Source of the DNA: an uncultured virus (IMG/VR IMGVR_UViG_2713897279_000003)
Lineage: Duplodnaviria; Heunggongvirae; Uroviricota; Caudoviricetes
Virus record (IMG/VR): IMGVR_UViG_2713897279_000003
DNA: 64,000 nt
Direction: 5' to 3' (one strand)
Under the pieces are notes generated by a model, which did no database searches, was not told the DNA's origin, and was given only the letters and a program-made list of their open reading frames with translations. Below are positions 36,174-64,000 of the stretch, in pieces (the first letter of the stretch is position 1; every line of letters begins with the position of its first letter). The translations under genes were made by a program, and so were the position numbers.

Positions 36174-37046
36174 CTAAATAACCTTTATGTTTTGAGGTAT
36201 AATTTGTTCATCCTCCAAAAGCTTATGATTTGTTAAGAGCACTGCCTCATTATTTAAATGCAGCATTAATATTTCAAAATCAACTATTTTATCATTAATA
36301 TTCATAATCTCTTGCACTAAGTCATTGTAAATAAAGCCTTGTCCCATCTCAAATTTGCCGAAATGTTCTTGAAGTTTATTTTGTGTTTCAAAAGATATAT
36401 ATGACTTTTGCTGTGCGCTCGTTGATTCATGAAATGCTAACTGCACCGTTATATCAATTGGGATTTCAATTGGTGTAATGATATTAGGACGACTTCCAAA
36501 AGCTTTTATCTTTGATATTTGTTCCCCTACATTATGAAGCACTTCTTCTTTCTCGTATCCATACTCGGGTATCACAATAAAACTAAAACTTCCCGTTCCA
36601 TGAGTATACTCTTTACCAATTACATCTCTTACGCCATTCACTGTTAAGCAAGCTAATCTAAGTGCTGTATGGTTTGCGGTAGCTGATGCAGGAACGATTT
36701 GTATTAATTCTGCACGATACATATCATCATCTATTAACTTTTCTGTTAATATACCATCAGATCCACGAACTTGATGCATTCTTCGTTTATAACTAAACAG
36801 TCCACCAATTAAATCTAAATGCTCATTCGTTGCTTTACTAATAAATCCTTGATTTAATACTTCTTGTGCAAAATCATATAACGATATTCTTTTAGGATCA
36901 TCTCCTGAACCAATTTCAGGAGCAATTGCTTCTGTAATAGAACGGGCAATACTTCCTGCTGAGAAATTTGTAATAGGCGTATTCTCAGATATAGAAACAC
37001 AAGCATCTCTTATAATTTCTTGCGCACTACGTTTTAATAACATCAT
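36174..37046 (-). CDS. Baseplate J/gp47-like wedge protein
   Basis: ITNFSAGSIARSITEA, ATNEHLDLIGGLF, DDDMYRAEL, LTVNGVRDV, GTGSFSFIV. Follows the gp25-like gene. Confidence 0.85.
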   Translation of the reverse strand: MMLLKRSAQEIIRDACVSISENTPITNFSAGSIARSITEAIAPEIGSGDDPKRISLYDFAQEVLNQGFISKATNEHLDLIGGLFSYKRRMHQVRGSDGILTEKLIDDDMYRAELIQIVPASATANHTALRLACLTVNGVRDVIGKEYTHGTGSFSFIVIPEYGYEKEEVLHNVGEQISKIKAFGSRPNIITPIEIPIDITVQLAFHESTSAQQKSYISFETQNKLQEHFGKFEMGQGFIYNDLVQEIMNINDKIVDFEILMLHLNNEAVLLTNHKLLEDEQIIPQNIKVI

Positions 37047-37055
37047 GAAAACCTC

Positions 37056-37457
37056 CTATAATTCTAGTGGCTGTTTAACAACTACTTTCCCTTTTTTATC
37101 TGTACTTAATATAGCAAAGAACTCTATTGCTTCTATGCTAGTAGGAACAGCTCTAACATCTATATCTGCAATCTGAAATCGCCCATCGGCTGTTAATGTT
37201 TGATAAATTTGTTCCACACCTCTCAAGCCTGTTTCTCTAGTGTTTGGCTCTCCTTCTAGCAATTCTAAATCAGCACCTAGCCACTTATGAGATCGCCATT
37301 CTCCTTTTTGGGAATGCATGCGATTCGTAATGTCTTGTCTAGCAGATTCATATTGCTCTGTAAGTGCAAAATCACCTGATTCATTAACCATGTAATCCCC
37401 TTCGATTTCATTCTTAGTATCATAAAAACGAATATCAGATTCATTATAATTCCTCAT
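37056..37457 (-). CDS. gp25/gpW-like baseplate wedge (sheath initiator)
   Basis: GDFAL...RQDITNRM...GEW..H..LGADL...L..DGRF pattern, plus size and position. Confidence 0.75.
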   Translation of the reverse strand: MRNYNESDIRFYDTKNEIEGDYMVNESGDFALTEQYESARQDITNRMHSQKGEWRSHKWLGADLELLEGEPNTRETGLRGVEQIYQTLTADGRFQIADIDVRAVPTSIEAIEFFAILSTDKKGKVVVKQPLEL

Positions 37458-37459
37458 CT

Positions 37460-37816
37460 CTAATTCCCGCTTTCAATTTTATTGTTTAGCTGCAATAAAT
37501 CGTGTACGTCTTTTAGTTCATCTTTTATATACGAACTTACTTTCATGTCAGTATGCTTTTGAAGGTTTTGTGTAAAAACGTGCACACTTGGAGCAAACAC
37601 CATAAGCGCCTGCTTCTTTCTACTAAAACGAAATCCCAATCCATAATCCGCATATCCTTCTAAATCCCCATTTTCTCTAGCTAATATGCCAGCACCACTA
37701 ATAGAATTAATTACGCCCACATCATTCTCTTTCGCTTCAGTTGCTGTTTCTGTGAGAAAATCAATATCTTCTGTTACTCTTAGATCTAGATCCGTTAGCT
37801 TTTGTTTCCAGCTCAT
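37460..37816 (-). CDS. Hypothetical baseplate/spike-associated protein
   Basis: 118 aa with ATGA overlap with the upstream gene and short beta-strand periodicity. Confidence 0.7.
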   Translation of the reverse strand: MSWKQKLTDLDLRVTEDIDFLTETATEAKENDVGVINSISGAGILARENGDLEGYADYGLGFRFSRKKQALMVFAPSVHVFTQNLQKHTDMKVSSYIKDELKDVHDLLQLNNKIESGN

Positions 37817-38268
37817 AGTAACCCTCCACCTGGTAATAGTTCCTCAAAGAAACCAGCAACACGTATGCTTAAATTATTCCAAAATAGTTCTATTTGGTCT
37901 GGTTCTCTATAATAGGCTGTAGCTATTGGCATACTAGGATCACCATTAATAAACTGAATCCATACTCGGTCATTCTTTGTAAACCCTTTATCAATAACCC
38001 CCTGTGAATAAACAAAACAAGGGACGGCATATAATTTTTGAATTTTATTTCCTTGTAAAACGTCTACATCAACTGTGTGTTGCTCCCATACTTCTATCTT
38101 TTCTCCCTTATGTCTACCGCACCTACAAACACCACCTGCTTTTTTTGTACCTGTATTAGGATGATAATCAACAACTTTTCCAATAAGACCATAAGAGCGT
38201 CGTTCTGACGCTCTATCTGCTCCTTCATTTTGCAAATCTCTTCTTACTTGGCTTGCTTCTATACCCAC
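37813..38268 (-). CDS. Spike-like OB-fold protein (gpV/gp5 N-terminal type)
   Basis: IGKVVDYHP...TVDVDV...AVP...NDRVWIQFINGDPSMPI. Directly follows the hub gene. Confidence 0.65.
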   Translation of the reverse strand: MGIEASQVRRDLQNEGADRASERRSYGLIGKVVDYHPNTGTKKAGGVCRCGRHKGEKIEVWEQHTVDVDVLQGNKIQKLYAVPCFVYSQGVIDKGFTKNDRVWIQFINGDPSMPIATAYYREPDQIELFWNNLSIRVAGFFEELLPGGGLL

Positions 38269-38283
38269 AAGAAATTCCTCCTT

Positions 38284-41200
38284 TTACTTTTTACACAGCG
38301 GATAGGAACAATGTAAATGATTCCAATGTCCTTTAGGGTCATATTGCATTGCGCTTTCTCCATATTTACCATTCATTTCTTGAATAATATCCCAATCTCC
38401 AAACACTAATCCTCTAAATCCAGCCTTCAAGCAACACTCTACAAGCTTTCTAGCCTTTTCTTTATCAGTTCCATTTGGAAACCTCATTTTCCCATTAATA
38501 ACTCTCATTGTATTTGGAGTATCAAGATCAGCAGCCCAACCAGTACCATGCCACTGATTATCACCTGGTCGCCATCCACTTGTAATATTAAAGCTATCTC
38601 CTGTGGCAGCCTTATATAATTTAGCAACTTCTATAAGCAACTCACCTGTTGCTTTTCGAACTTTACTTGTACCGCCACCTCCTACAATCGTTAAACCAAA
38701 ATTACGTCCAGATAAATTATGTAAATCAATAATATCTGGAGCACCACCACTTCCTAGGTGATATTTACTTTTCCCTTCTTTCCCTGTTATAAGTGGACAT
38801 GAACTTGCACCACCAGAACCTTCGCCAACTGCCCCGCCACCTTTACATGCACCAGCAGGCAAATTACCATCATAGTAACGTAAAACTCGTTCTACATATT
38901 TAGAATCACCGTATCCTGGTGGAATCCTTGAAATTCTACCTACTTTTTTAACCATAGATTCTGAGAAACTATAGGCTAATTCATATGTGTATTTTCCACC
39001 TCTGCTCATACAGTAATCAATAAATCCACCGCCGAAGTTATAGGATTGCAATACTAGTTTGATATCACCTTTTGCTCTTGCAAGTTGGTTCTTGAAGTGC
39101 GTTACACCTTGCTTAATACTAGCATCTACATCTTTAATATACCCAATTGGTTTTCCCATCGATTCTGAGGATTGCATCACATCAGGGAGTTTGTGATAAT
39201 TACCGCCTGACTCCTGCATAGTTAAAGATTTTAATATCTCTGCATATGATCCGATTCCTTGTGCTTTTGCTTCAGCTTCAATCTTAGGACCAATTACATC
39301 AAAGTATTTTGAAAGACCTTTCGCTTTACCATCTGTCGGTACATCACCCTCAGGAACACAAGTACCATCATCTTTGCTTCCAAAGAAGGATGTAACTTTA
39401 TCCCACAGATCTTTAAACCAACCGGTTATTTTGTTTTTAATTTTATTCTTCCATTCTTCCCAAGATGTTTCTTCTTTTTCATATGTTGCTTTTGTATCCC
39501 TTTTTCCTAACAATTCTAATCTCTTATTAATTTGTTCTAAAGCTGCTTTGCGATCTTTATCATAAAGTTCAAACAGTTTTTCTGAAGTCGATACTTGTTT
39601 TTTAAATGTATTATAAAAGTTACTCGCTAATTTAGTTAGATCAATAGGTTGTTCTGTAGGTGTATCCGACTTTATCCCCATTTGCTCTTGAAGATTATCA
39701 TTTCTAAATTGCCAAGCATCCACACCAATAAATCCTAGAAGGAATGCAGAAACATCATTTGTTATAATTTTTTGCACAAAATCAGGTGCATCCCCTATGA
39801 CAGAACCCTTATGTCCATTTATACCTGCTGTATATTCAAATCCGCTTTTTTGTAATGGAGATATTAAACATGCCTGTCTCATAAATAACCATCGTTCAAT
39901 AAATTCTCCAATTGTTGATGTAAGGATATGAACTCCTAAAGCTTCTATGGCTAGTCCTAGCCAACCAATTGGCCCTGCCGTTATGTGCGCACCTGTCCAA
40001 AGAGACGTTACAACACCACGCCCACCTTTTAATACCTTACCTATGGATTTAGAACCTTTTGCAATTAGAGCACTTCCTTTAGCTTTCATCTTTACATTTT
40101 TAAAACTGTTATAGCCAAACTCTCTAGAATTCTGGAATATATTCTTTAAGTTGTTTGTGCCTTCTTCTCCTGTTAGCTTAGCAAGTTGTTCAAGTAATCC
40201 ATTCTTGGACCATCTCGCAATATCTTTGGAAGATATACCACCTTTTCTCAATTCATCAGCGGCAGCTATCTCTTTGCCATTTGGTGCCTTACCACCAGTT
40301 ACCTTATCCTGAAACTTTTGACCTAGCTTGCTCGTATCAAATCGCTCTTTCATCTTGTCGAATCGATTTTTTGTAGAAGACCATAAAGCATTCATAATTG
40401 GTAAATGTCCTGCGTATTTAGAAGTTCTTAATTTTTTACGTAACGTATGGGTAATTAATGCGCTACCTGCTAATGCTTGGACACTTGCAAGTAACGTCAT
40501 GGCACGGCGGTCTGTATTAACAACTACAACATCCGGTTTGATTAAAGTAACATACCCTTGTTCATGATTCATAATTTGTGTTACTTCCTTTACCTCTGCA
40601 GGACCTGAAATAGAATTATGCTCATCATTAATCCACATTTGATCAAATGGCTTTACAGATGGATCTCCCATAACCGTTAAATAGCCATCATACATATCTT
40701 TTACATAATCCCTTAAACCTGCTGCTGTTATTTTTACAGCAACTCCTTCATCGTAATACCACTTAGGCAATTTATTTAGTAAGCCACCAATCAGAGGGAT
40801 ATTTTGTATCATGCGAACCCCTTGCGCATTCATTGTCGTATCAATGTTTACAACTCTTTGTTTTTCAGGCCAAATATTTGTGTCAACAAACACTGGGGAG
40901 GTTGTATCCATCTCCCCTTCATTCATGTATAAACCAACAGCTACTGTATACATGTTATCTTCAGTAGTCTCTATTGAATTATCAATAATACTTGTTGCAC
41001 TATCGTAAACATGGAATTGTCTAAATGGCTTCAAAGCAGTACCTTTAACTTCTTCACCATCCACAACATAATCATAATGCAACGGGAAATATGGCTTTCC
41101 AGAAAATATAGTATTCCTAAAACCAAAGGGATGAACCGCAACTATGTGATCATCACCAACAGCCGCACATATATTTAATACATCCCAGACGGTCTTATCA

Positions 41201-44200
41201 AATAATCCAATATTAATACCAGGTTCATCTGCTTGCCCAATACCAAATGCATCCTTAATTTTATTCCACCAGCCATCATGCTCTTCGTTTGTTAGCCCCG
41301 TGGTTTGGTAGATATTCATATTAATTTCTCCAACAGTTCGGCTATCCTTACCAAATGTTACTCCACCAATAAATCCTCCAGCAACACCGCCAATAGCTGC
41401 TCCCATTGGTCCACCAATTAGAAATCCTCCAGATGCCCCTAATGCTGCTCCTCCAAAGAATCCTCCAAGCTCACCCCATCCTTGTGGAGCTTGCTGATGT
41501 CCAAAATGCATTATGCCTAAACTATGTTCTTGGAATTCATCATTAGATAAGCCAGCCCAAAGATTAGAAAAAAAGCCTCTTGAATCAGTCAATAATTCAT
41601 CTACAATTTCTGTTGGTTCTTGCTTAGAAAATAAAAATCCACCCTCTGTAGTTTCATTCACATCTGCTCTAATTTTATTTGTTAGTTCAATTCCATCGTC
41701 CTGCGCAATCACTGTAAGAGAAATCCCATTATTTTGAATAGATGTTATTGTTCCATTCATGATTGTTGGCATACTCATAGGGTTTGAACCATATCCCATT
41801 CTGAAATGAATACGTGTGCCAGTACGCAGCATAATACTCTTATAATAGTTTGCGTTCCTATGTCGTGAACGCTCTGCTTCTTTAGCCACCGCACCAGGCA
41901 TTGTTAGCATTTTAAAGACTTCACACCAACTTGTATTTGTTAAATCCATACCTTTTTCAGCGTCATCCAATGTTCCATAGATATTACACATCTCTATCGC
42001 CAATGTACTAGAAGCTTCTTTTCTGCTATTAGTATAAGTAATATCCATAACAGCTTGATAATTAAAGAATTGATCGGACATTTTAACAGTCCCCATATAT
42101 TTTCCTTCATCAATAAATGTCAGAAAAAATGTAGGGAATGCTCTGACTAATCTTCCACGCATATCATATTTCACCATGTCATGTAACATACCTGTATGTA
42201 TTCGGTTATCGTCTTTGAAATCACTTTCTTTCATGTTTTGTTCTTGTTTTTTTCCGTTTGGACCTGTGGTTTTAAAATCTTTCACAGGTAAATCTTTTGT
42301 TTTTTCTTTGATGGTTTGATCAGACCATTCTGGATTATAAGAAGATGAATTCAACACTTTATTAATAATGTCGATAACTTCTCTAGGTGGTTGTTTATTA
42401 TCTTTTAATAAATCTACATATTCTCGATCATAACCAAGATATAGCATAACCACCCCAGCAAAGCGTACCTTTTGTTGCTCCCAACCATTATTGGTATTCA
42501 ATCCAAAACAAGCATATACATTTTCTTCGTGATACATTTTTTTATCACTCGTATTTGATTTAGCAAGCATTTGGTTTAGTTCCGTGTAATATTGAGACAT
42601 CTTACGTACACCTTGTTCAACATTATATTCAATATTTTTACCAAGTAAATTTACATTAGAACCATACATTTTTCTGACTTTCATTATCCCAATGTATTCT
42701 CCATCTATAGATCCATCGTTATTTACATAGTATTTAAAGTTTTTATTCATCATAGTAGGAGAACTTGTTTTACTATTTACTACTTTATCCTGCCTTGTAT
42801 TTGTTCCTACATCATAGAATTGTTTTAATTCAGAATCTAGAGCCTTAGCAAATGCAACTGTAAAGTTTTGATTAATATGAAACTGTTGTGATTTTTCTCT
42901 AATAAGAGCTTCTGCTTGAGCCACAGAAAGGTTATTTTTATCAATAAGCTCTTCTGGGATAGCACTATAACTAACTTTATTTTTACCTACTGCATCCTCA
43001 TAGTCTTTTCTACTATTCTTTAATTCTTCAGATGTAATATCATTTATATTCTCAATATTACCACCGTTGATATTTGCTTCTCCGCCTTTACCATCCCTCA
43101 ATACTGTTTGATAATTTTGTTGTGCTACATTAACCAAATCCTCAAAGAATAACGTCCCTTTTTTGTACTTAATAAAAAAGTCAGGATCTACAAATACACC
43201 ATTATTATAGTTTTCTACCTTAAAACCAGCTTCCTCAACTTCGCCATAAGTAGGGAGTTCTAAGTCAGGATATACTTCAGCCGCTGCAAAGAACTTTTGT
43301 ATGGATTCCTCATAAATGGCTTGTTTTTTTGCATCCGCTTGAACATTAGAACCTCCTAAGAATGATCTTAATCCCACCCATGCTTCTTTCGCTGCCGGTC
43401 TATCCGCAACAAATTGAGCCCATCTATTTAATGGATTATCACCTATTCCGTCTTCAAACATTGTAGCTGGATTTAAGCTTGTTAAAAGACTCAAGACTCC
43501 TTGATTCTCAAATTTATCAATATCCCATTTAGCAGTCTCTGATAACCATTTAACCTCATTCATCTTTTTTTCTGCTCGATTGTATGCAATCATTGTTAAA
43601 GTGACTTCAAACATCCCTGGCATTCCTGGCACAGTATTTGTTTGCATATCTTCAATAGTTACATTTTTTACTCCAAATAATCTTGCAAGCTGATTATCAA
43701 AATCTAGAAATCCATTCGCCATCTCTTTATGATAGGTACGAATTAAATAAGAAGTTCTTCTCATTAGCCCTTCTAAGCTTGCAATAGACTCCATATCATG
43801 AGTAGTAAACTTTCCCGTGATTACTGTATCCTGAGATCCCATATACTGATGCGTAGGAGATTCATCATGTTGTAGTTGAACAGAAGTAATGGTGTTTTCA
43901 AATCCTATAGACAAATCAGTTAATGTTAAGTTAGGTAAATCCCACTCTTCGTAACCTACGTCATGTTCAAACATTGCCTTTTCATAAAATGCATCAATAT
44001 CTTTATTGAATTGTTTCTCTAGTTTTCCTGTATCCAGATAATCTTCTTGCTTCTCTTCAATATAACTCTTAATCAGTTTTTTCTTCTCATTATTCCATTT
44101 GTTCATCTTAACTAAATCATCTTCAGCGGCTATTCTAAATTTAAAATCATTATCTAATTCTTTATATAAAGGTTCATAATAAGAACGAAAAGATTTCGCA

Positions 44201-44703: not shown

Positions 44704-44714
44704 AATCATTCCCC

Positions 44715-51772: not shown

Positions 51773-51775
51773 AAC

Positions 51776-54133: not shown

Positions 54134-54161
54134 AATAGGACAGCAATTATGCTGTCCTATT
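54134..54161 (-). terminator. Rho-independent terminator after the tube gene
   Basis: Perfect 12-bp inverted repeat AATAGGACAGCA/TGCTGTCCTATT running into Ts on the minus strand. Confidence 0.75.
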
Positions 54162-54166
54162 GTGTA

Positions 54167-54934
54167 TTAAAATCCAGTTGCTAGAATATCACCAGAAGCA
54201 ACGTTACCAGAAGCGCCACCTTCTTGACGTAGATTATCTTTTGCTTGTACACCTTTAATTTTACGAGCAACAAATGTATAAGCCTTAGAGGTAATTACAT
54301 CGTCAACAGAAAAACCGGATGTTTCGTTTAATAACTGAATGCCGTAAATCTCCATACCAGCACGTTGCCCGTATTCATTGGCCATTGAAATAGTCACATT
54401 GAACGGCATTAATTGATCGGCATATTCAGGAACAAAGAAATCAGTTAAATTATCGGTATTAAATCCACCATTTTGTGCGCCGTCTGTACGAGCATATCCT
54501 AGACGAGTCATTTGTTCATCCCAAGTATTAATACCATATGTATTAGCACCATTTGGAGAAACTGATTTCAAACCACTTAATATCTCATCTTCAATCCCCA
54601 TTCGTCCAGAGCGAGCGCCTTGTCCATTTCCGTTTGCAATGTATTGTTGGAAACGCATTGGAGTCGGTGCACCTTTATATTCTTTTTTCATTTCCTCAAG
54701 TAATGCATCTCGATCAAATTGAACAAATACTAAGGATCCTTGAATGCCACGTTTACCACGAGAGAAAGAACGAGCATCTGGGCTGCCCATTGTATAGACT
54801 GGAGCAACTTCACGTGAAACAGAATAAGAAATTGCTTGTAGTTCTCCAATTATACGGCCGTTAAATGTCGCCGCAATATCAGCACCTGAGAACGTAGAAA
54901 AGGTGCGAGTATATTCTTCTGTATTAAAAGCCAT
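54167..54934 (-). CDS. Major tail tube protein
   Basis: Immediately downstream of the sheath, with a tube-like beta pattern and flanking stem-loops. Confidence 0.8.
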   Translation of the reverse strand: MAFNTEEYTRTFSTFSGADIAATFNGRIIGELQAISYSVSREVAPVYTMGSPDARSFSRGKRGIQGSLVFVQFDRDALLEEMKKEYKGAPTPMRFQQYIANGNGQGARSGRMGIEDEILSGLKSVSPNGANTYGINTWDEQMTRLGYARTDGAQNGGFNTDNLTDFFVPEYADQLMPFNVTISMANEYGQRAGMEIYGIQLLNETSGFSVDDVITSKAYTFVARKIKGVQAKDNLRQEGGASGNVASGDILATGF

Positions 54935-54968
54935 GAGTATTTCACCCCTTGTGAAATTTATTTAGTAT

Positions 54969-54999
54969 ATGTGCAAAGAGTTACTCACTCTTTGCACAT
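54969..54999. promoter_or_regulatory. Stem-loop between sheath and tube genes (mRNA stabiliser/processing site)
   Basis: Perfect 13-bp inverted repeat ATGTGCAAAGAGT/ACTCTTTGCACAT with no U-tract on the minus strand. Confidence 0.65.
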
Positions 55000-55005
55000 T
55001 ATTTA

Positions 55006-57927
55006 TTATAAGCTTGCACGTAGTGCTACACTTGTATAGATTTTACGAGTTTCATATGCCGGTACTAATTCAAGTTGAATATATGCGTTACCTAACACAC
55101 GATCTTTAGCTGAAGTAAAGATAGAAAATTTAAAGTTAGTTAAAACACCAAAATCTTTTAATTTATCTAAACCAGCCTGAATTTCTGTTGCCAAACTATT
55201 ACGCTGAGCTACACCATTTGGTAAACCAATAAATTTATCCGCTAATTTGCGAATTACTTGCACTGTAGCGTGTGTAATACGTACTGTAGATAAGCGTTGA
55301 TAATCACTCATTGGTCCCGCTGCTGTTACACCATCTTTTACAACGACAGAACGGTTGCCATTTATGCTCACTTTATTCTCAAATGTAACGTAATGTCCAC
55401 CAGCCAATTGATTATGCTGTGCTTCAGATAAATTGTAACGTAAACCAGAAACTGCAATTGGTTTATTTGTTGTAGACACCTCAGGACGCAATTGAGAAAT
55501 TAGAGCGGCGTAAATACCTGCGCCACTCGCAATATATGTGCCAAGCTTTTCATGCGCTAATCCTGTTTCAGGACCGAATACAACGTTAGCATAACGTCCT
55601 ATATCAATTGGTTCACCTTCGTCATTGAAAATACGCTCATTTGTTGCAAGATTATACATATAATGAGCATTTAAATAATTAGGATTAATACCACGAGAAT
55701 ACCAGTATTGAGCTGATTCTTCGTCAACCCCAATTCCCTTAGTTAATAAGTCAATGTATTGCTGGACCTCACGCAATCCCATTTCAGGGGCCGGAGCTAC
55801 ACCAATTACACCAATTGTTTCGTATGTTTTTGCACTAACCATTGCACAATGTTGTGCTAATTGAGTAGCAAAGTTTCGATTATTATCTATATAAGTTGAA
55901 CCATCATCAGCAATAGCACCAATTGTAGTGTTAGCAAATGCATCACATAGCCAAATAAGATCAACCGAATAGTTTTCTAATTTACTATATATTCCTTGTT
56001 CTACTAGATCATATTCATCTAAAGTAGCTGGAACCAACTCATATTTTCCGCCTAGAGAATCATATAATTCTTTCATAGCCATTAAATTAGTAGTATCATA
56101 AAAACCATCTCCACCTAACCACTGGAAACGTCCTGCATCATTTTCGGCTTTATTATCATCTACATATAACGAATATTTCCCTTCATCTTCGTTATATTTT
56201 TCACCTAAGTTAATTGGACGATAATCATAACGTCCATCAATTGGACTTACATTGTAATCCGTAACCATTAAACCCGTTATCGCTACATCACCAGTGTTCA
56301 CAGGAACTTCCAATCGAACAATGTTATTTTGTGGCAAGCTATTAATATAATTCGCAAACTCACGAATTGTGCGAATACCACGCATTTCTTTTGTTCTAAA
56401 GCGGATTTCAGTATCATTTGATGTTAATTTTTTATCTGAAGGTTTGATAAAGCGCACTACACGATTGTCCATATCAAGTGTACCATTTTCATTTACTTCA
56501 TATTCAACAGTGTATTTAACACCATAAAGGCTTTCAAAATCACGAATATCCTGAATACCACCGTACACTTTACCACCGTGTTTACCTAAAATACTAATTT
56601 TTGCACCTTGGGTAGCACCTTCACCTGTTTTATAATGTGCAAACAATTTAGCACCCACAGGAGCAACACCAGCTTTAATCATTACTTTTATTCTTTCTTT
56701 TCCATCTGGATAAATAACAGTAAAATGATCATTTGGCTTTAATGTGATACGTTTTCCGTTTAACTCGTAATATACTTCAAGAGAATCACTTACTGGTGTA
56801 TGTTTTAATACTGACTCTTTTTCAGCGCCTGGTACTACATACTCATCAGATTTTTGTATCTCTAAGTCGTTGTAATAGAAGTAATCTGCCACTACTAATA
56901 AAGCCGCTGTTAGTGCTGGGTATATACCCTTAGCTACTTCTTGTTGATATGCTTCAGTAAAACGAATACCGCCTTGTTTATATTCTTCTGCTGTAATGAT
57001 ATCAGTAAGATCGTTTTTCACCGCTGAATCGCCTTTACCAATACGCCATAAGCGTTCTCCAGATGTATTAACCATTGGAATAGCATTGACTCTACCTTCA
57101 GCATCTTTTGTATAAACATTTACTTGATGAATAGGCTCATCTGACCAATTTCCTACTTCTGAAGAAAAGTAATTTGTCATTGTAGGATTTTGAGTTAATA
57201 ATCCTAAAGTTGATGAATTAGTTTTACCATCCATGTTTCGTGTTACTTCTGAATAATTGCGTTTTTTAGCTTTGTAAATAACCTTAATAGTATTTTTAGG
57301 GCGAAACTTATCTTTTGTAAAATAAATTGTTTCGGATCCAGGTGTAATATCTACATTTTGATAGCCAGTGGAGTCTGGAAATGTTTTAACTGGATCCACT
57401 GCTGTATCAGTTCCTTCAAACTCTTCAATTTTTTCAATTTTTACTAATCGTTGATCTTTTTCAATGTTTAATCGTTTCGTAAAAGCAATATTACCTGGAA
57501 TTAAATTATTACCCAACATATCAGCTAACGGCTCTGTAACTTCACTATTTTCATCCTTAGCAAGGATCTCTGACATTGCTGTTTTACCAGAGATACGAAG
57601 TAAACGGATATCTTCGTTACCAGCACGTATTGCTTCCCACATTGCACGTATTAGTGTGCCCTGATGAGGAACACGAACTGTTTTTTCTACACCATTTTCA
57701 ACTATAGTCTTTTTCTCTAGTAAACCACCAAACATTTTTTCAGCAGCTTTAGGGCCACCAATTTGATTAACTGATACTGGCTCTCCAACCGGACCGTCAA
57801 TGGCAGTACCCATAATTAAAATAGCCTGTGTTCTTGAGTCTTCTACCTGTTTACCAGTATAAAGATTGCCATCTTCATAGGATACTTTTACACCCGGTAA
57901 GTTTTCATACTGTTCAAAGTTTGACAT
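55006..57927 (-). CDS. Contractile tail sheath protein with large inserted domains
   Basis: N-terminal LPGVKVSYED...GTAIDGPVGEPV...AEKMFG. C-terminal DGVT...RLSTVRI...DKFIGLPN...IQLELVPAYETRKIY. Confidence 0.92.
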   Translation of the reverse strand: MSNFEQYENLPGVKVSYEDGNLYTGKQVEDSRTQAILIMGTAIDGPVGEPVSVNQIGGPKAAEKMFGGLLEKKTIVENGVEKTVRVPHQGTLIRAMWEAIRAGNEDIRLLRISGKTAMSEILAKDENSEVTEPLADMLGNNLIPGNIAFTKRLNIEKDQRLVKIEKIEEFEGTDTAVDPVKTFPDSTGYQNVDITPGSETIYFTKDKFRPKNTIKVIYKAKKRNYSEVTRNMDGKTNSSTLGLLTQNPTMTNYFSSEVGNWSDEPIHQVNVYTKDAEGRVNAIPMVNTSGERLWRIGKGDSAVKNDLTDIITAEEYKQGGIRFTEAYQQEVAKGIYPALTAALLVVADYFYYNDLEIQKSDEYVVPGAEKESVLKHTPVSDSLEVYYELNGKRITLKPNDHFTVIYPDGKERIKVMIKAGVAPVGAKLFAHYKTGEGATQGAKISILGKHGGKVYGGIQDIRDFESLYGVKYTVEYEVNENGTLDMDNRVVRFIKPSDKKLTSNDTEIRFRTKEMRGIRTIREFANYINSLPQNNIVRLEVPVNTGDVAITGLMVTDYNVSPIDGRYDYRPINLGEKYNEDEGKYSLYVDDNKAENDAGRFQWLGGDGFYDTTNLMAMKELYDSLGGKYELVPATLDEYDLVEQGIYSKLENYSVDLIWLCDAFANTTIGAIADDGSTYIDNNRNFATQLAQHCAMVSAKTYETIGVIGVAPAPEMGLREVQQYIDLLTKGIGVDEESAQYWYSRGINPNYLNAHYMYNLATNERIFNDEGEPIDIGRYANVVFGPETGLAHEKLGTYIASGAGIYAALISQLRPEVSTTNKPIAVSGLRYNLSEAQHNQLAGGHYVTFENKVSINGNRSVVVKDGVTAAGPMSDYQRLSTVRITHATVQVIRKLADKFIGLPNGVAQRNSLATEIQAGLDKLKDFGVLTNFKFSIFTSAKDRVLGNAYIQLELVPAYETRKIYTSVALRASL

Positions 57928-57958
57928 TAGGGTTCCTCCTTTTAAATTAACCTCTTAA

Positions 57959-58645
57959 CTAAAGAGAATTATTAATCTTTGAAACAACTTGAACTTTTTG
58001 AATTTCATTAAGAAATTTAACTGTAATTTTTTCAAATCGCATTTTGTAATACATAGGTCTTTTAGCCAAGTTAATACCTTGATTTTGAATCACTTCATCA
58101 GTTCCTTGTGAATCAAATAGAATTTCTTGAACTCCATTCCTTTTAAAGAAACCAGTATAAGTTTGAATAAATTCCTCTAGGTCCAAAACTATTTCGTCTG
58201 CTTCTTCTGCACTTTTAGAAAAGATTACAAATTCAACTATTAAATCAAAAATCTGACCATAGAGTTCTACATATTCACCATCTCTATAAGGATGCCTAAT
58301 TGTACCCCTATGTCTTGGTTTGATATCCTTAAAATCTTTACTAACTTCCCTTTTCATGACTCGATAAGTTATACGAGGAAAATCAGCTTCCTCTTTCAGT
58401 GGAGAGTGACGTATAAACTCACCAGGTTGACCAGCATTGCTCCAAAGCTGCTGTAATTCATCCACAAAACTTAGAAAAGTAATAGGCTTATTTGAACGTA
58501 ATCGATTATCAATATATGGATCTTCTTCTGGAAGAATTTCATTATTTTTTCGAAGGCTACTCTCGTAACTTTCTAATTCCTCCTTTATGTAAGAAGGCAT
58601 ACTTTGTGCCTGTTGTATAGCTAAATATGGATCTATATTACTCAA
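57959..58645 (-). CDS. Probable tail terminator/completion protein
   Basis: FPRITY...VEFVIFSKSAEEADEIVLDLEEFI pattern. Directly upstream of the sheath. Confidence 0.6.
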   Translation of the reverse strand: MSNIDPYLAIQQAQSMPSYIKEELESYESSLRKNNEILPEEDPYIDNRLRSNKPITFLSFVDELQQLWSNAGQPGEFIRHSPLKEEADFPRITYRVMKREVSKDFKDIKPRHRGTIRHPYRDGEYVELYGQIFDLIVEFVIFSKSAEEADEIVLDLEEFIQTYTGFFKRNGVQEILFDSQGTDEVIQNQGINLAKRPMYYKMRFEKITVKFLNEIQKVQVVSKINNSL

Positions 58646-58660
58646 GACACATTTCTCCTT

Positions 58661-59713
58661 TTATTTATAAATACGAACAATTGAATGACCTGTTATCTTA
58701 TGAACAGAAAATATCGGAACTACTTCAATATTTACTTCAATAATTCCATATAGTTCGCTTATTTTTATAGAATAATCATAATCTCTAATCTTCCTATCTA
58801 ATATTCGCCTTAAACATAACGCCTCAATTATTTCTTCAATGTTAGAAGCTTGATATGTAATATTAGGTTTTCCAATAAATACTTCTAAACTTCTAGCTAT
58901 TTCATTTATAATTTCTTGTGCTATTCTAAAATTAGAGATATGTTTGTGGACACTGTCAGAAGTACTTACCGCACAACTAGAAGAAGAACACACAATACCC
59001 TTTTTAAAAGTATTTTTAAAACAGACTATCCCTACTTCTCTTAATTTAAGAATTTGTTCTTTTGTAAATTCAGCCTCTAATTTCACGTTAGGTATAGTTT
59101 TATTTATTGGACTTATTTCTGGATTGATTGCTGCTAATACTCCAGCATACACAGCGCTTGCTTTATTAAACTCCATTTGATTGATAACTAACGATAAGTA
59201 TTTCCCATTTTCTTCCAAATCATCACCAGAAAGCTCTTTTGTTAGATTATTAATTTTATTGAAATGCTTTTCAATATCAGAAAATTTATTTTGAAGAGAT
59301 AAAGACATAATACAATGAACCAAGTTTCCTTTATCTTCTTTTATTTTTGCAAATCTAATATAATTATCAATTAACTCGGAATGCTTATCAAACTGTACTT
59401 CATCAAGGTAAAGCAGGTCAAAATCGAAAGTCTCTAACACTGTAAATACTATATCAAACCTATTAGGCTCCATTCTCATAAGAAATACATTCAAATTCTC
59501 ATCTATTGAAGTGGCATCTTCATAACATTGGACAATTGGACCAGAGTCAAATATATCTATAACCATTTCTTTCCCATAAACAAGTGTTGGTTCGTAATAT
59601 TGACCTTTATTTGATTCGGCGACAATAATTAATCTTTTGCCTATCTCAACTTGTCTTTCTACGTATATTAATGGATGCTGTATAAAATCAACGCTTGGTG
59701 AGGGCCCATTCAT
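58661..59713 (-). CDS. Short tail sheath paralog
   Basis: VYAGVLAAINPEISPINKTI...ISNFRI...FIGKPN...IEVVPIFSVHKI aligns to the sheath C-terminal domain. ATG 59713 follows AAGGGGG. Confidence 0.8.
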   Translation of the reverse strand: MNGPSPSVDFIQHPLIYVERQVEIGKRLIIVAESNKGQYYEPTLVYGKEMVIDIFDSGPIVQCYEDATSIDENLNVFLMRMEPNRFDIVFTVLETFDFDLLYLDEVQFDKHSELIDNYIRFAKIKEDKGNLVHCIMSLSLQNKFSDIEKHFNKINNLTKELSGDDLEENGKYLSLVINQMEFNKASAVYAGVLAAINPEISPINKTIPNVKLEAEFTKEQILKLREVGIVCFKNTFKKGIVCSSSSCAVSTSDSVHKHISNFRIAQEIINEIARSLEVFIGKPNITYQASNIEEIIEALCLRRILDRKIRDYDYSIKISELYGIIEVNIEVVPIFSVHKITGHSIVRIYK

Positions 59714-60176
59714 CACAATCCCCCTTAAAGTCATATCGACTATATACTTGATAAAATTCTGTTCTTCCTTTTACTCCAAATTTAGGTTCAACAGCACTAA
59801 TTAATAACTTCTCTTTTATCTTGATTGGCATTTCTTTTTCATCCCAAACAACTTCTAATATTAGATCATTCTTTTCTGGTTTAGATCCATAGTCTAAATA
59901 ATACGTATAAGCCTTAGGTGCATATGTACCATATGGTTGTAATTGATTTACTTCAACTAATGTTTCAGAATCATAAGCTTCTTTTCTTCTTGCTAACTTC
60001 TTTTCAATCACCACTTCATATCCTGTTCCAAAACATCTAGAGCAATTTAATTTAGCTTCACCACTTCGTTCTATATAACATTTACACCGAAAATGGAGGT
60101 TTCTTCTTACATAGATAATTGAATGACCATATTTAGCAAGAACTTGCGCAAACTCTTTACGAATATCAATCATCAA
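59688..60176 (-). CDS. Neck/head-closure-like protein with Cys4 motif
   Basis: RCKC-x11-CSRCFGTGY, in the neck position. Confidence 0.6.
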   Translation of the reverse strand: MMIDIRKEFAQVLAKYGHSIIYVRRNLHFRCKCYIERSGEAKLNCSRCFGTGYEVVIEKKLARRKEAYDSETLVEVNQLQPYGTYAPKAYTYYLDYGSKPEKNDLILEVVWDEKEMPIKIKEKLLISAVEPKFGVKGRTEFYQVYSRYDFKGDCDEWALTKR

Positions 60177-60180
60177 ACCC

Positions 60181-61260
60181 TCACCCTTCTAGTAAGCTTG
60201 TTGCTGCACCAAATGAGCCTGAAACAGATTCGTTATGATTTTGTTTATTTTGCTCCATCATTACATCTAACCAAAATTTAATTTCTTTTTGATTAGACGC
60301 AATCATAATTTGCAGCTTTTTAAAAAGAGATTCTTCTTGAATACCATTTGGACTATCACTGGATTCATTGGCAGAGTTTAAATTATCTTGAATCATAAAA
60401 TCCCCCAATTGGATAGTACCACTTAATCCACCTTCATCTTCTTGCTTATATGAATTATTTAAAACTCGAAACATTAAACCTTGAAGTAAGAGCCTTACAG
60501 CCTCACGTACCACATATTTTGTTATTGCAAAATATGTATCATCCTGCTCTGTAGGGGGGCTATAACGACTATTGTTAGCATCTGGTATTTCCCCTATGTA
60601 TTGTAAAGCCTTTTGCCCAGCATCCCTTAATGCACAATATACTTCATTTAGAGAAAAATATTTAAATAAACTTCCAATTATATTTTTCACTTCTAAAGGT
60701 GTTGCAAAAATCGGCTCATATTTAGAGGTAAAAGTTAAAGTTTTTATTCCCCCTAAAGTTAATCCAGATTTTGATTTAATTTCATCACCTAGGACCACTT
60801 GATACGTATAATTATATTTTACTTTTTCTTCAAATAAGATTTCTACTTTTTTTCCCTCAACAGAAATGCTAGTAGGTATTTGAAATTCTGAACTGAACAT
60901 ATAATTATCCCCATCTAACACAACTACATCCCTATTATTTTCAAAACTAGGCGCACATTCAGATATAACAGTAAATTGTTCTTTTCTCTTATATTCTTTG
61001 CCCTTAATAGTAGCTATATAGGTTAAAACATATTCACCACTCTCCAAAATTTCAGGAATGGTATACTCACCACTATACGAGAAGTGGTTATCCAATGCTT
61101 CAAGTTTAACACTTTCTATGGCTTCTAATCCATATTGATCAAAACGCTCAATACTCACTGTTGGTGGAAAATCAACTGCAATATGTTTACTATCCTGCCC
61201 TAAAGTTAATAATTCTAAAAAAACCTTTGTTTTTTTAGAAAATTCCCCTATATGATCCAT
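60181..61260 (-). CDS. Ig-like domains plus head-tail adaptor-like C-terminal region
   Basis: Ig-like beta segments, then FATPLEV...helical region...TIQLGDFMI reminiscent of adaptors. Confidence 0.55.
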   Translation of the reverse strand: MDHIGEFSKKTKVFLELLTLGQDSKHIAVDFPPTVSIERFDQYGLEAIESVKLEALDNHFSYSGEYTIPEILESGEYVLTYIATIKGKEYKRKEQFTVISECAPSFENNRDVVVLDGDNYMFSSEFQIPTSISVEGKKVEILFEEKVKYNYTYQVVLGDEIKSKSGLTLGGIKTLTFTSKYEPIFATPLEVKNIIGSLFKYFSLNEVYCALRDAGQKALQYIGEIPDANNSRYSPPTEQDDTYFAITKYVVREAVRLLLQGLMFRVLNNSYKQEDEGGLSGTIQLGDFMIQDNLNSANESSDSPNGIQEESLFKKLQIMIASNQKEIKFWLDVMMEQNKQNHNESVSGSFGAATSLLEG

Positions 61261-61319
61261 ATCATCACCTTCTTTTAAACGTATCTTCTAACTCTATAAG
61301 CTGATAATATATTTTTCTA

Positions 61320-62258
61320 CTAAGTTCTTTCCACCAAAATGTAACACGAGGCAGTATTAACAGTATTAGTGTCTAATTCTTCAGAAAATTTAATTGTAAC
61401 TTTCTGAAAGGAATCTAGTGGATTATTGACAGACTTATTTTTAGGAAATACTTCTGTCACACTCAGTTTAGGTGAAAATTTGTTATCTGAATCCCATAAA
61501 GCTTCTTGTAAATTTTTTAATTGCTCCTGATTAACAGCTCTCGTAAAAGTTTGTAATATTACATCTTCTTTATCATCCATACCCCTAAATTCTTCTTTCT
61601 TTGAGGTTTGTATATTTGAGTCTATTTCTCCATCAAAATAAAAGCTAATTGGTTTTGACCAAGAACTACATATCCCTTTACAATCTACACTTCTTGCTCT
61701 TACATAATATTGTGCCTGCTTATATGAGATATCTAATTTAACACTTGTTTCATCTTCTAATAAATAAACTTTTTCACTATTTTGCGGCCACACTAAATTA
61801 TTGAATGTATTGCTCATAGAGATTTGCAATTCATAATAAAGAGCTTCTTCTATCTTTGTTAGGTGATATTCGGGTTTTTTCGTAATGATAGAAAGATCTT
61901 TGGGTTTCAGAATAATAGGCGGTTTAACAGAAACCATGTTTTTTGTATAAAATTCTAATTCATATGTTTCAGCCATAATTCTACCAGTTATATCCTTAAT
62001 TCCATTTTCTCCTCCAATGAGTTGTAGTTGATAATGACTATCAGGATTTAATATATTTAAGGATTTAACCTTTAAAACTTTGCGATTATATGTAAATGTA
62101 ACTGGTTCTACCTTGTTTTCCTTTAAATTTATCAATATAATATTTTCTTGCCGAAGGCTATTCACATTAATATCCAACATAAATATTATCTCTATTTCTT
62201 GATCTAAGTGAACTTCATCTTGCATATGATGTGGAAGTGTTTTATAAATCATACTCAT
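61320..62258 (-). CDS. Ig-like (Big_5-type) plus Fn3-like structural protein
   Basis: IEIIF..DIN..SL...LNPDSHYQL...IKDITG; YELQIS...YYVRARS...SSWS; ends in a partial second Ig-like repeat. Confidence 0.75.
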   Translation of the reverse strand: MSMIYKTLPHHMQDEVHLDQEIEIIFMLDINVNSLRQENIILINLKENKVEPVTFTYNRKVLKVKSLNILNPDSHYQLQLIGGENGIKDITGRIMAETYELEFYTKNMVSVKPPIILKPKDLSIITKKPEYHLTKIEEALYYELQISMSNTFNNLVWPQNSEKVYLLEDETSVKLDISYKQAQYYVRARSVDCKGICSSWSKPISFYFDGEIDSNIQTSKKEEFRGMDDKEDVILQTFTRAVNQEQLKNLQEALWDSDNKFSPKLSVTEVFPKNKSVNNPLDSFQKVTIKFSEELDTNTVNTASCYILVERT

Positions 62259-62261
62259 ACT

Positions 62262-62597
62262 TTATAACTCACTTGTATACTTATAATCAACAGCAATAAC
62301 ACATGTAGGCTGTGGCACTTGTTTAGAAGAAAATAATATTTCTCCGGTAAAATAATTAATGTAATAATCACCATCTAGAGTACCTTCGTTTGAAGCTCTT
62401 TTCATTCTCATTCCATTTTTATATATCTTTTCACTATTTCTTAAAGGCACGTGCACAAAGCGGAAATTTCGATTCACACCATCCTGTGCTCCTATTAATT
62501 GTTCTTGATCGGCTAGTTTAGAACCAGAAAAGTCGGGCATTACTCCGACCTTTTTTCTGAACTTAGGATAATCAGGGTGTTGTCTAACAAAAGCCAT
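62262..62597 (-). CDS. Small virion structural protein (DGVN..F / DY.I....GEI.F module)
   Basis: GAQDGVNRNFRF...YKNG...DYYINYFTGEILF...IAVDYKY. A related module is inserted in the sheath and in 63155..64000. Confidence 0.7.
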   Translation of the reverse strand: MAFVRQHPDYPKFRKKVGVMPDFSGSKLADQEQLIGAQDGVNRNFRFVHVPLRNSEKIYKNGMRMKRASNEGTLDGDYYINYFTGEILFSSKQVPQPTCVIAVDYKYTSEL

Positions 62598-62611
62598 TTA
62601 TTACTCCCCCT

Positions 62612-63139
62612 TTATCTCCACATCAAAGCAAAATCATACACATTTGGGCGTACGGTACCAGTATAAGTACATTCTACTTTGACTTGAATATATTTTCTTG
62701 GTGTTTCTAATAAAGTAGGCTGATCTACTCTTATTTCTTGCCAATCTGCTGATTTAGATGATCTAAAATAGAATTTAACGTAAGCCCCTTTATTAGGGTA
62801 ATCTTCAAAATTAGAGACAAGATTGATCTCCTCTGTTGGAAGTGGAAGCTCTAATAATGAACTTTCCCACGCTCCTGAATTGATAGAAAAACTTAATGTA
62901 TTTAATGCAGCTGTACTATTTTCATCTCGATCAGTATTATTTATAAAAGGTTCACAAAAATACATGTCATAAGGAGACACGAGGAGATACATATCATATC
63001 TCTCTCGTGTTGTTTTTAACTTAATTGCTTCTGCAATATTCTTTTGCATCATATTTAAGTGAAAATCATGTAATACTTGACCATCCAAAAAGGCGATTCG
63101 CTTCATATAGTCAGTTGCATAAGAAGGTACTGTTGCCAT
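62612..63139 (-). CDS. Hypothetical structural protein
   Basis: RIAFLDGQVLHDFHLNMMQ N-terminus, then GAWES...YFRS...W...KYIQVKVE beta-sandwich. Confidence 0.7.
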   Translation of the reverse strand: MATVPSYATDYMKRIAFLDGQVLHDFHLNMMQKNIAEAIKLKTTRERYDMYLLVSPYDMYFCEPFINNTDRDENSTAALNTLSFSINSGAWESSLLELPLPTEEINLVSNFEDYPNKGAYVKFYFRSSKSADWQEIRVDQPTLLETPRKYIQVKVECTYTGTVRPNVYDFALMWR

Positions 63140-63154
63140 TTTACATCCCCCTTA

Positions 63155-64000
63155 TTAGAATGTTACAGACCAAGTAATACGCATTCCTGTATTTTTATCT
63201 TTTGTTACTGGGCCGATACCAGAGATATTGAACATTTTCCCGTCAATTTTCTCATCGAACATAGCAACTTGGTATACATCATGAGTTGTTTTTTCATAGC
63301 TATGATTAATCGTTACAATGTCACCTGTACTAATGCTATTTGGAGTAATTGTTTTTCCGTCTAAGGAAATTGTATATTCATTAGATTCCAATGTTTTTGT
63401 AGTGCCGGAATGATTGACGATTACCTCTGGAACTATGAAAGCACCATTTTCTTCTTTTGCAATTGCAGCATCTAAGATAATAGATGTTTGTCCCGCACCA
63501 ACTGTAACTACTTTTTTCGTTTTTTCAATTGATGGGGCTGGTGTACCTTTCGGGAAATCCGCAATAAACTTAACAGTTGTGCCTGAATTCACCATATATT
63601 CGACTTGAATTTGACCTGGTGTATGTACTTTTGGACCACCTGTTGGTTCAGAACTGAATGTAATATGCCCAGTATTCGGATTTGAAACCCAAACATCACC
63701 TTGGCTAGGACGTAATCCATCTTGAACGATATTATATTCACGGACATTTGTACTATCAATTGCATCAATATGACGAACAGCTACAAGTTTTACCACTGGT
63801 GCTTGTCCTAATTGATAAATTAAATGACGATTATCTAATTTTAAACGATACTCTACTTGAACCGTGTGACCAATAGTTATGTCACTATCAGCAAATCGAA
63901 TAGATACTCCAGAAGTTTCATTTGTAACCACTGATACATTCGCTTTAATATCTGTGTTTGCTGTTACATTTCGCACAGAAATAATTTCTAGCAATTTACG
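63155..64000 (-). CDS. Tail-collar/fibre-like structural protein, 5'-truncated by window edge
   Basis: Frame open to base 64000. C-terminus QVAMFD...GKMF...VTKDKNTGMRITWSVTF resembles collar-fibre proteins. Confidence 0.7.
   Translation of the reverse strand, partial: RKLLEIISVRNVTANTDIKANVSVVTNETSGVSIRFADSDITIGHTVQVEYRLKLDNRHLIYQLGQAPVVKLVAVRHIDAIDSTNVREYNIVQDGLRPSQGDVWVSNPNTGHITFSSEPTGGPKVHTPGQIQVEYMVNSGTTVKFIADFPKGTPAPSIEKTKKVVTVGAGQTSIILDAAIAKEENGAFIVPEVIVNHSGTTKTLESNEYTISLDGKTITPNSISTGDIVTINHSYEKTTHDVYQVAMFDEKIDGKMFNISGIGPVTKDKNTGMRITWSVTF

Follow-up and report, generated by a model that had tools for sequence, protein, structure and literature searches.

The stretch of DNA analysed here, in the following called the window, comprises 64,000 nucleotides of an uncultured virus of the class Caudoviricetes (IMG/VR record IMGVR_UViG_2713897279_000003). 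Positions 36174-64000 encode on the minus strand a contractile-tail operon that is syntenic with ORF127-ORF151 of Bacillus phage 0305phi8-36, and all large open reading frames (ORFs) of the window are located on this strand in a single co-directional gene array running from 64000 down to 1. An initial annotation, made from the letters of the sequence, had described a complete contractile-tail set without capsid, portal or terminase genes upstream of it, possibly a domesticated tailocin-like machine, and had suggested the lineage of 0305phi8-36. The 48 window ORFs of at least 80 amino acids (aa) were scanned against PHROG and Pfam, and the morphogenesis proteins of 0305phi8-36 (NC_009760.1) were used as tblastn queries against the window. 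ORF127, ORF136-144, ORF147, ORF150 and ORF151 matched the window in order, which bears out the suggested kinship as a distant one with 25-41% protein identity. A megablast search of the window against phage records gave no match. The operon encodes the following proteins, given in the order of transcription; the headless sequences mentioned are introduced below.

63155-64000 (-): C-terminal 281 aa of a 605-aa virion-type protein, the gene running past the window end
62612-63139 (-): 175-aa conserved virion-type protein, long N-terminal helix and CBM-like beta-sandwich
62262-62597 (-): 111-aa small beta-sandwich protein (19 homolog clusters; AF2 pLDDT 78)
61320-62258 (-): 312-aa Ig-like (Big_5) protein, ORF127 homolog (Pfam Big_5 4.7e-14; tblastn 1e-18)
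60181-61260 (-): 359-aa protein with a weak Ig-like domain (Big_5 E 3.7e-4, under the cut-off)
59688-60176 (-): 162-aa homolog of virion protein ORF136 (phrog_38102 1.4e-91; tblastn 2e-18)
58661-59734 (-): 357-aa sheath paralog in the ORF137 position (phrog_279 'tail sheath' 6.4e-14; tblastn weak, 5e-4)
57959-58645 (-): 228-aa homolog of virion protein ORF138 (phrog_20284 1e-98; tblastn 7e-13)
55006-57927 (-): main tail sheath, 973 aa, ORF139 homolog (phrog_16991, 1128 bits)
54167-54934 (-): tail tube, 255 aa, ORF140 homolog
53228-54112 (-): tube paralog, 294 aa, ORF141 homolog
52346-53224 (-): tube paralog, 292 aa, ORF142 homolog
51776-52273 (-): tail chaperonin homolog, 165 aa, ORF143 (tblastn 1e-22)
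50955-51719 (-): tail chaperonin homolog, 254 aa, ORF144 (tblastn 1e-18)
50064-50951 (-): 295-aa internal-deletion remnant in the ORF145 position
44715-50057 (-): 1780-aa giant in the tape-measure position, exonuclease-like domain at about 48933-49730
38284-44709 (-): baseplate hub giant, 2141 aa, ORF147 homolog (phrog_20474, 2996 bits)
37813-38268 (-): 151-aa protein in the P2 gpV (spike) position, judged relative to ORF148
37460-37816 (-): 118-aa baseplate-region protein, intact in 4/4 headless sequences
37056-37457 (-): gp25-position baseplate protein, 133 aa, ORF150 homolog (phrog_975 'baseplate protein' 1.6e-7; tblastn 2.7e-13)
36174-37046 (-): baseplate J-like wedge protein, 290 aa, ORF151 homolog (phrog_6 1.8e-13; tblastn 4e-30)

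Most of the tail set initially annotated, i.e., the sheath and its paralog, the tube and two paralogs, the chaperonins, the hub, gp25 and J, is borne out by these comparisons; the spike is weakly suggested by its position and by a sub-threshold match to Phage_base_V (E 0.085), and ORF148 gave no tblastn match in the window. The sheath shows 32.7% identity to ORF139 over 52% of its length and 36.5% to the sheath of Moorella phage MTATph1, and a search by sequence for a related solved structure found none. The three tube-type proteins are 39-41% identical to ORF140/141/142 in tblastn. They match phrog_9206, which is wrongly labelled 'major head protein' because the product names of ORF140/141 were copied, although the notes of that record say tail tube and paralog. 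ORF143 and ORF144 are annotated as 'hypothetical tail chaperonin' in the 0305phi8-36 record. Residues 1808-1923 of the hub form a Lysozyme_like cell-wall hydrolase domain (Pfam 1.8e-33), which matches the solved cell-wall hydrolases 4fdy (4fdy_A, 2.6e-19) and 4hpe, and the J-like protein reaches 23.2 bits for Pfam Baseplate_J at a cut-off of 21.1. No family was found for the 118-aa protein in the PHROG and Pfam scans, permissive ones included, and permissive scans of the unnamed window proteins gave sub-threshold hints only.

The initial annotation had additionally assigned 'neck-type' genes, and this assignment was not borne out for the 175-aa and 111-aa proteins; both are predicted to adopt generic beta-sandwich folds, not that of a connector or terminator. 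The 175-aa protein is found in 69 homolog clusters, the most distant members of which are mostly 55-74% identical (lowest 46%), and in a protein atlas it matched unnamed clusters only, all below 0.9. Its AF2 model (pLDDT 90) resembles generic beta-sandwiches of the PDB with TM scores of at most 0.42, and for the modelled fold of the 111-aa protein no PDB match was found at E <=0.001.

Carrier plasmids and a single loss of the head genes

Window positions 32642-64000 are 99.4% identical to the second contig of genome G001 (G001:C2, 145,187 bases) and positions 1-13355 are 96.5% identical, the fibre arrays between them being mosaic. G001 consists of two contigs, and G001:C2 is a second replicon that belongs to the pG9842_140 plasmid family of the B. 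cereus group. Over window positions 44000-64000, plasmid pG9842_140 of B. cereus G9842 (NC_011774.1, 140,001 bases) shows 99.5% and the B. thuringiensis plasmid NZ_CP132202.1 (141,841 bases) 99.6% DNA identity. In both plasmids the gene order is that of the window's lineage, nearly all genes are annotated as 'hypothetical protein' and the fibre arrays differ from those of the window, being mosaic among strains. The contig G066:C2 and NC_011774.1 agree in length and gene coordinates and are counted as one. The record CP001188.1, probably pG9842_140, is regarded as a probable member of the lineage. For CP001188.1 it was reported, in an excerpt of the study, that terminase and several capsid components are lacking and tail genes are present (Piligrimova et al. 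2021, PMC8026635). The excerpted text of another study gives no validated minireplicon for pG9842_140 and leaves phage genes unmentioned (Zheng et al. 2013, PMC4219350).

The first part of G001:C2 carries a replication initiator, SSB, a SNF2-type helicase, a HEPN/nucleotidyltransferase pair and a ParM-like segregation gene, followed at 30.3-125.6 kb by ~95 kb of tail and fibre genes. These in turn are followed by primase, DnaB, holin, subtilase, a sigma-like regulator, a RemA-like protein, Pol III alpha and an amidase endolysin. The lysis genes, located on G001:C2 outside the stretch covered by the window, encode a holin (PF04531) and an amidase endolysin (PF01510 and PG_binding_1), and these genes, the sigma-like regulator and the core replication set are intact in G001:C2 and G066:C2.

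Within the B. cereus group a single head-bearing relative was found, the B. thuringiensis plasmid 'pd' (NZ_CP097261.1, 259,656 bases), which is 82.5% identical to the window. It is colinear with the headless lineage round the circle, its tail proteins are 62-99% identical and it shares the replicon type rep_cluster_909; in contrast to the headless lineage, it carries head and packaging genes and a complete early module, which includes RecA, ThyX and DnaN, and its two giants have their full size of 2013 and 2309 aa. Its 379-aa protein is 62% identical to the 359-aa protein of the window. NZ_CP097261.1 is typed as mobilizable with a MOBP relaxase (PLSDB) and may be a cointegrate. Ten plasmids were found with a full-length sheath homolog: eight of 200-260 kb, from B. 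thuringiensis, B. licheniformis, B. paralicheniformis, B. halotolerans and Paenibacillus, encode portal and capsid, and two of ~140 kb lack both. In a large protein collection the sheath is represented by 64 homolog clusters, many on contigs of ~200-220 kb. The plasmid carrying the operon is a ~140-145-kb replicon of low-copy type, which descended from a ~200-260-kb jumbo phage-plasmid distantly related to 0305phi8-36. One further sheath cluster (P0002), 89% identical to that of the window and with a longest contig of 130,723 bases, may represent either a second reduced lineage or a broken assembly.

In NZ_CP097261.1 the genes upstream of the 698-, 708- and 605-aa homologs encode, in the order of transcription, TerL (phrog_2), a 106-aa and a 424-aa protein, the portal (phrog_9232), a protease/scaffold-type protein, a 407-aa protein, the capsid (phrog_3922, PF25209) and a 166-aa protein. 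The 605-aa gene is complete in G001:C2 (36946-38763), and its product is 98.7% identical to the counterpart of NZ_CP097261.1, its DUF2460-like match being weak (E 5e-5, under the cut-off); the 698-aa protein found no usable match in the protein atlas. Homologs of the 106-aa and 424-aa proteins are retained in G001:C2. TerL and the five genes from the portal to the 166-aa gene gave no tblastn match in G001:C2 or the window, and neither did the 0305phi8-36 head genes ORF117 and ORF122-125.

Two scars are found in place of these genes. In G001:C2 ~260 bases of the 3' part of the terminase gene are recognizable at 65-66% identity, with all three frames stopped. The capsid scar comprises ~290 bases at 61-69% identity, which run from the 3' end of the capsid gene through a conserved hairpin into the beginning of the 166-aa gene, with stop codons in every one of the three frames. 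The capsid gene is the most conserved gene of the family, with 89% protein identity between NZ_CP097261.1 and the B. licheniformis plasmids compared to 68% for the sheaths, and the intact capsid genes of NZ_CP097261.1 and a far more distant B. licheniformis plasmid still share 80.6% DNA identity. Calibrated in this way, the scar is far more diverged than the intact gene, by a rough estimate of 0.2-0.3 extra substitutions per site. The scars differ by 0.6-1.4% among the three of three replicons in which the junction is visible (G001:C2, G066:C2 and NZ_CP132202.1), and their alignment is free of gaps. The shared, gap-free scars together with their high divergence show that the head was lost once and well before these plasmids split: deletion removed the genes for terminase, portal, protease/scaffold, the decoration-position protein and capsid, and the gene after the capsid decayed in place. 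Just past the former capsid gene, at about 32300-32345 of G001:C2, the G+C-rich hairpin is near-unchanged from NZ_CP097261.1 amid decayed DNA and may be a terminator or regulatory element still in use. Across the plasmid family, from B. thuringiensis to Paenibacillus and B. licheniformis, identities are 83-89% for the capsid, 43-68% for the sheath and 52-66% for the portal.

Head genes were also sought beyond the junction. Portal, capsid and terminase protein queries against the complete genomes G001 and G066 found no match (the portal query with a positive control), and six-frame head-profile searches of both genomes gave weak chromosomal matches only and none on contig 2, the same profiles matching NZ_CP097261.1 strongly (5e-34, 1e-59 and 2e-32). 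Among the main G001:C2 ORFs located outside the part shared with the window, and among the window ORFs of at least 80 aa, the PHROG and Pfam scans revealed no terminase, portal, protease/scaffold or capsid. Across the genus, the portal query matched 0 of 70 scored genomes and is therefore uninformative on head-bearing kin in the genus. An unrelated replacement head set elsewhere on the plasmid was considered and ruled out, as no capsid, portal or terminase family matched the scanned ORFs or the six frames, and the unnamed ORFs fall short of a head set in both number and size. The absence of capsid, portal and terminase genes upstream of the operon, as initially noted, is therefore found to hold in three near-identical replicons, the window itself ending inside the 605-aa gene. 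The flanks, for which an inspection for capsid and terminase genes had been proposed, contain, in the sister replicons, nothing but decayed scars; in place of the intact head and packaging modules that would mark an ordinary large phage, the nearest complete replicons have these genes deleted or decayed.

Selective decay and purifying selection

The fate of the 252 ORFs of at least 80 aa of NZ_CP097261.1 was scored in G001:C2, with the following outcome for four blocks.

Neck-tail-baseplate, 26 ORFs: 24 intact, 2 length-changed, 0 fragments, 0 absent
Packaging/head, 13 ORFs: 3 intact, 1 length-changed, 0 fragments, 9 absent
Early/replication, 97 ORFs: 11 intact, 1 length-changed, 6 fragments, 79 absent
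Late, replication and lysis, 40 ORFs: 14 intact, 2 length-changed, 5 fragments, 19 absent

RecA, ThyX, DnaN, UDG, RNase H and several helicases are among the lost early genes. The coding density of G001:C2 is 0.43 at 1-30.3 kb, 0.98 in the tail-and-fibre part at 30.3-125.6 kb and 0.74 in the remainder.

The conserved block at 30357-69240 of G001:C2 encompasses 29 genes, which are open in 96/96 full-length gene-by-replicon reads from four headless sequences; this count leaves out five upstream genes for the window and a few variable genes with partial matches. In the 9126 codons of window positions 36174-64000, about 29 stops would be expected at 0.02 and about 439 at 0.3 neutral substitutions per site, and none is seen. 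The ratio of non-synonymous to synonymous substitution rates (dN/dS) relative to NZ_CP097261.1 is 0.11 pooled over 15 genes (Nei-Gojobori, dS 0.62) and 0.03 for the 605-aa gene, and in pairwise comparisons among the headless sequences it ranges from 0.13 to 0.32. Within the headless clade every polymorphic codon was counted once and genes not alignable end to end were left out, which gives the following ratios of non-synonymous to synonymous polymorphism (pN/pS).

Upstream genes: 51.5 synonymous, 40.5 non-synonymous, pN/pS 0.20
Sheath, tube and chaperone genes: 33 synonymous, 22 non-synonymous, pN/pS 0.18
Hub and baseplate genes: 46 synonymous, 19 non-synonymous, pN/pS 0.11
295-aa ORF and 1780-aa giant: 16 synonymous, 52 non-synonymous, pN/pS 0.76

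Five variable or recombinant genes, kept separate, show a pN/pS of 0.15. The tail genes were thus kept intact by purifying selection after the loss of the head. The comparison across host strains proposed initially gives a conserved order and intact tail genes. Furthermore, the tract of the 698-, 708- and 605-aa genes (G001:C2 32717-38763) shows a dS of 0.22-0.29 to NZ_CP097261.1, compared to ~0.5-1.3 for the other genes, and among the headless plasmids the identity of the 708-aa gene drops to 93-96%. Both observations indicate recombination with head-bearing kin, in tracts that end at the capsid scar.

The tape-measure region was initially described as eroded beside an intact sheath, tube and hub, and the comparison with head-bearing relatives supports this. 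In the 295-aa ORF, residues 1-113 match residues 1-112 and residues 107-295 match residues 1815-2013 of the 2013-aa virion-type protein of NZ_CP097261.1, which corresponds to an in-frame loss of ~1700 residues and a 5.26-kb gap in the DNA alignment. The 1780-aa giant aligns to the 2309-aa protein in two blocks of 62% and then 43% identity, with ~480 residues missing between them. In the plasmids of B. halotolerans and B. licheniformis the two giants are still large, with ~1980 and 2288 aa. The 1780-aa giant possesses a DEDDh-type exonuclease signature with weak matches to RNase_H_2/RNase_T. In 4/4 head-bearing sequences (B. thuringiensis, B. halotolerans, B. licheniformis and Paenibacillus) the motifs ExoI 'FDIET.GD' and ExoIII 'AHN...D' are kept; 4/4 headless sequences read 'FNFEIHGD' at ExoI and 'IQNA---TD' at ExoIII and have thereby lost these motifs, the ExoII motif being retained in all headless and head-bearing sequences. 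Judged from these motifs, the exonuclease-like domain is inactivated, and the erosion falls on parts that plausibly serve DNA delivery. The gene in the tape-measure position encodes 1734 aa in NZ_CP132202.1 (L027 32363-37567) and, from the same start, 1780 aa in the other three headless sequences. No tandem repeats were found in the DNA of the tape-measure region.

The operon continues into the fibre region, which contains the following features.

1-36106 (-): arrays of fibre/receptor-binding-type paralogs (phrog_22713, phrog_22575, phrog_38477, phrog_5811)
35330-36106, 34977-35318 and 32678-33904 (-): first copy of a three-gene cassette (258 aa, ~110 aa and ~400 aa)
22411-23187, 22062-22367 and 20841-22046 (-): second copy of this cassette

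The arrays carry glycine-rich, discoidin (F5/8 type C) and lectin domains. Nine ORFs of this region match phrog_22713, three of which contain the glycine-rich domain ALK_LTK_GRD, and between strains the region is a mosaic of shuffled modules. At 7733-8230 a 165-aa permuted papain-like amidase (Peptidase_C92, YaeF/YiiX type) is encoded among the fibre genes, for which the PHROG label reads 'enoyl-CoA hydratase-like'. Within the fibre region of NZ_CP097261.1, ~53 kb (about 239448-259656 and 1-33430) lack a counterpart in G001:C2, 53 ORFs being scored as 'absent'.

A putative tail-only particle and its comparison with known systems

The lineage is characterized by a single old loss of the head and packaging genes, a wholesale loss of early genes and a strict retention of the ~95 kb of tail and fibre genes and of the lysis genes. 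On the strength of gene content and sequence evolution, we hold with moderate confidence, as the leading reading, that this headless jumbo-phage-derived plasmid encodes a tail-only, tailocin-like and DNA-free particle. Upon induction, the operon would make headless contractile tails, which would be released by holin-endolysin lysis and would bind related bacilli by the variable fibre arrays. Sheath contraction would then push the tube, together with the hub and its hydrolase domain, across the cell wall and the target would be killed without DNA delivery, in analogy to R-type tailocins. Of the features expected for a tailocin, a tail set without head and packaging genes, a lysis cassette and selection after head loss are found, the latter with the caveat of recombination with functional kin. 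The domestication considered initially agrees with this picture: purifying selection has preserved intact tail genes, and the head, packaging and most early genes are decayed, as domestication predicts.

Several observations weigh against a functional tail-only particle. The gene in the tape-measure position is shortened and, jointly with the 295-aa ORF, evolves near-neutrally (pN/pS 0.76); should the 1780-aa giant act as the tape measure, tails might not assemble properly. So much of the early region is gone that activators of late transcription may be missing. Ten upstream genes of unassigned role are retained that should be dispensable for a minimal tailocin, and a PDB structure search for a connector or tail terminator fold among the 175-aa and 111-aa proteins found none. 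Part of the polymorphism within the clade may have been pre-filtered by selection in functional phages. The element is moreover rare, with the sheath being present in two of the 70 scored species-representative genomes of the genus (one further genome unscored) and the sheath cluster of the window having 9 members (longest contig 139,950 bases) compared to 22 in a head-bearing sister cluster that is 88% identical. A look for RNA evidence over window positions 50000-59999 found none listed, and two soil runs contained only low-depth contig fragments, probably DNA.

These points overlap with what speaks for an inert degenerated plasmid prophage, whose functionless tail genes would be intact through recent reduction or recurrent overwriting by functional phage kin. 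This is the published view of the probable member CP001188.1, which is classed, in an excerpt of the study, as a Myoviridae degenerated prophage remnant (PMC8026635), and it would agree with the rarity of the lineage, the near-neutral reduction of the tape-measure-position gene and its neighbour, the heavily decayed early region and the clear recombination with head-bearing kin. However, divergence in the scars greatly exceeds that of an intact capsid gene from a far remoter relative, which makes the head loss old, and their presence in 3/3 junction-visible replicons indicates a single origin. Over this time no stop or frameshift appeared in the full-length reads of 29 genes in four sequences, with ~29 stops expected already at 0.02 substitutions per site, the core tail genes show a pN/pS of 0.11-0.20 and decay is sharply selective by gene class. 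Recombination refreshing ~95 kb would furthermore be expected to restore head genes too. An inert remnant is considered less likely than the tail-only particle.

A head-borrowing satellite, packaged in the heads of a superinfecting or co-resident related jumbo phage and using its own ~95-kb tail and fibre set to fix the host range, would account for the extension of purifying selection to the upstream genes that flank the lost head module. It would also fit the plasmid size of 140-145 kb, which is smaller than that of the 200-260-kb head-bearing kin, and recombination shows that both kinds meet in the same cells. Two complete carrier genomes, however, encode no matching portal, capsid or terminase, the portal query matched 0/70 scored genomes of the genus, a packaging signal or small terminase was not identified and the folds of two upstream proteins are predicted not to be connector-like. 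The decay of the exonuclease site and of the 2013-aa virion protein fits a loss of DNA delivery, and we regard head-borrowing as improbable. A third alternative is that the window's own replicon is an ordinary complete phage-plasmid with head genes just past base 64000. TerL, portal, protease/scaffold and capsid of a complete tailed phage or prophage are missing in the sister replicons. The window ends inside the 605-aa gene, and the junction is seen in sister replicons only, which counts against the tail-only reading. Yet over 31 kb the window and the headless G001:C2 share 99.4% identity, and the window bears the derived marks of this lineage, namely the deletion that leaves 295 aa and the loss of the exonuclease motifs. 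As the sole head-bearing relative from the B. cereus group is only 82.5% identical, a complete phage-plasmid is considered very unlikely.

If tails are made, the locus would far exceed in size any other tail-only locus known to us, and a tail-only element would have arisen from a jumbo phage-plasmid and be plasmid-borne in the B. cereus/thuringiensis group, with a role of the particle perhaps in killing rival bacteria. If head-borrowing is true, the element would mirror the capsid-encoding satellites that borrow tails. The lineage moreover offers a natural experiment that sorts out the tail genes of a giant virion: genes without an assigned role on either side of the lost head module survived, and the gene after the capsid, the 2013-aa virion protein and the exonuclease active site were lost. 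It also cautions against filing headless phage-plasmids as junk on gene content alone. Literature searches found no paper treating this element as a tailocin and none naming NC_011774.

The operon shares with 0305phi8-36 the order of sheath paralog, virion protein, sheath, tube, tube paralogs, split chaperonin, giants, hub, gp25-like protein and J, and differs in that 0305phi8-36 is a complete lytic phage of 219 kb. In 0305phi8-36 accessory virion genes flank the head module, as stated in an excerpt (PMC2147016), and this fits the survival here of the genes that flank the deletion. Its relatives BtI1 and BwK1 possess terminase, portal and capsid according to an excerpt of the same study (Hardies et al. 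2007, PMC2147016). Partial texts describe pBtic235 as a plasmid-phage hybrid with 0305phi8-36-like structural genes (2018 review, PMC6199540) and as an inducible prophage (PMC8026635). The sheath of pBtic235 matches the C-terminal 29% of the query only, with 31.6% identity.

R-type tailocins such as R-pyocins and diffocin are encoded by loci of about 10-40 kb, which are mostly chromosomal. The present locus resembles them in possessing a contractile tail without head genes, adjoining lysis genes, selection and variable receptor-binding parts. In contrast, it comprises ~95 kb, is plasmid-borne, derives from a jumbo phage-plasmid and has kept replication genes. In the Pfam comparison the sheath and tube proteins match no family, neither the Phage_sheath nor the XkdM-type families of PBSX/diffocin-type loci, of which PBSX additionally encodes head proteins. 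Likewise, no AAA+ ATPase and no sheath, tube or toxin family typical of extracellular contractile injection systems (eCIS) was found in the 48 window ORFs (Pfam, E <=0.001). With eCIS of the Afp/PVC type the locus shares the logic of sheath, tube, spike-hub and baseplate; it differs from them in that its gene order follows that of the phage and in that its hub bears a peptidoglycan hydrolase, which points to bacterial targets.

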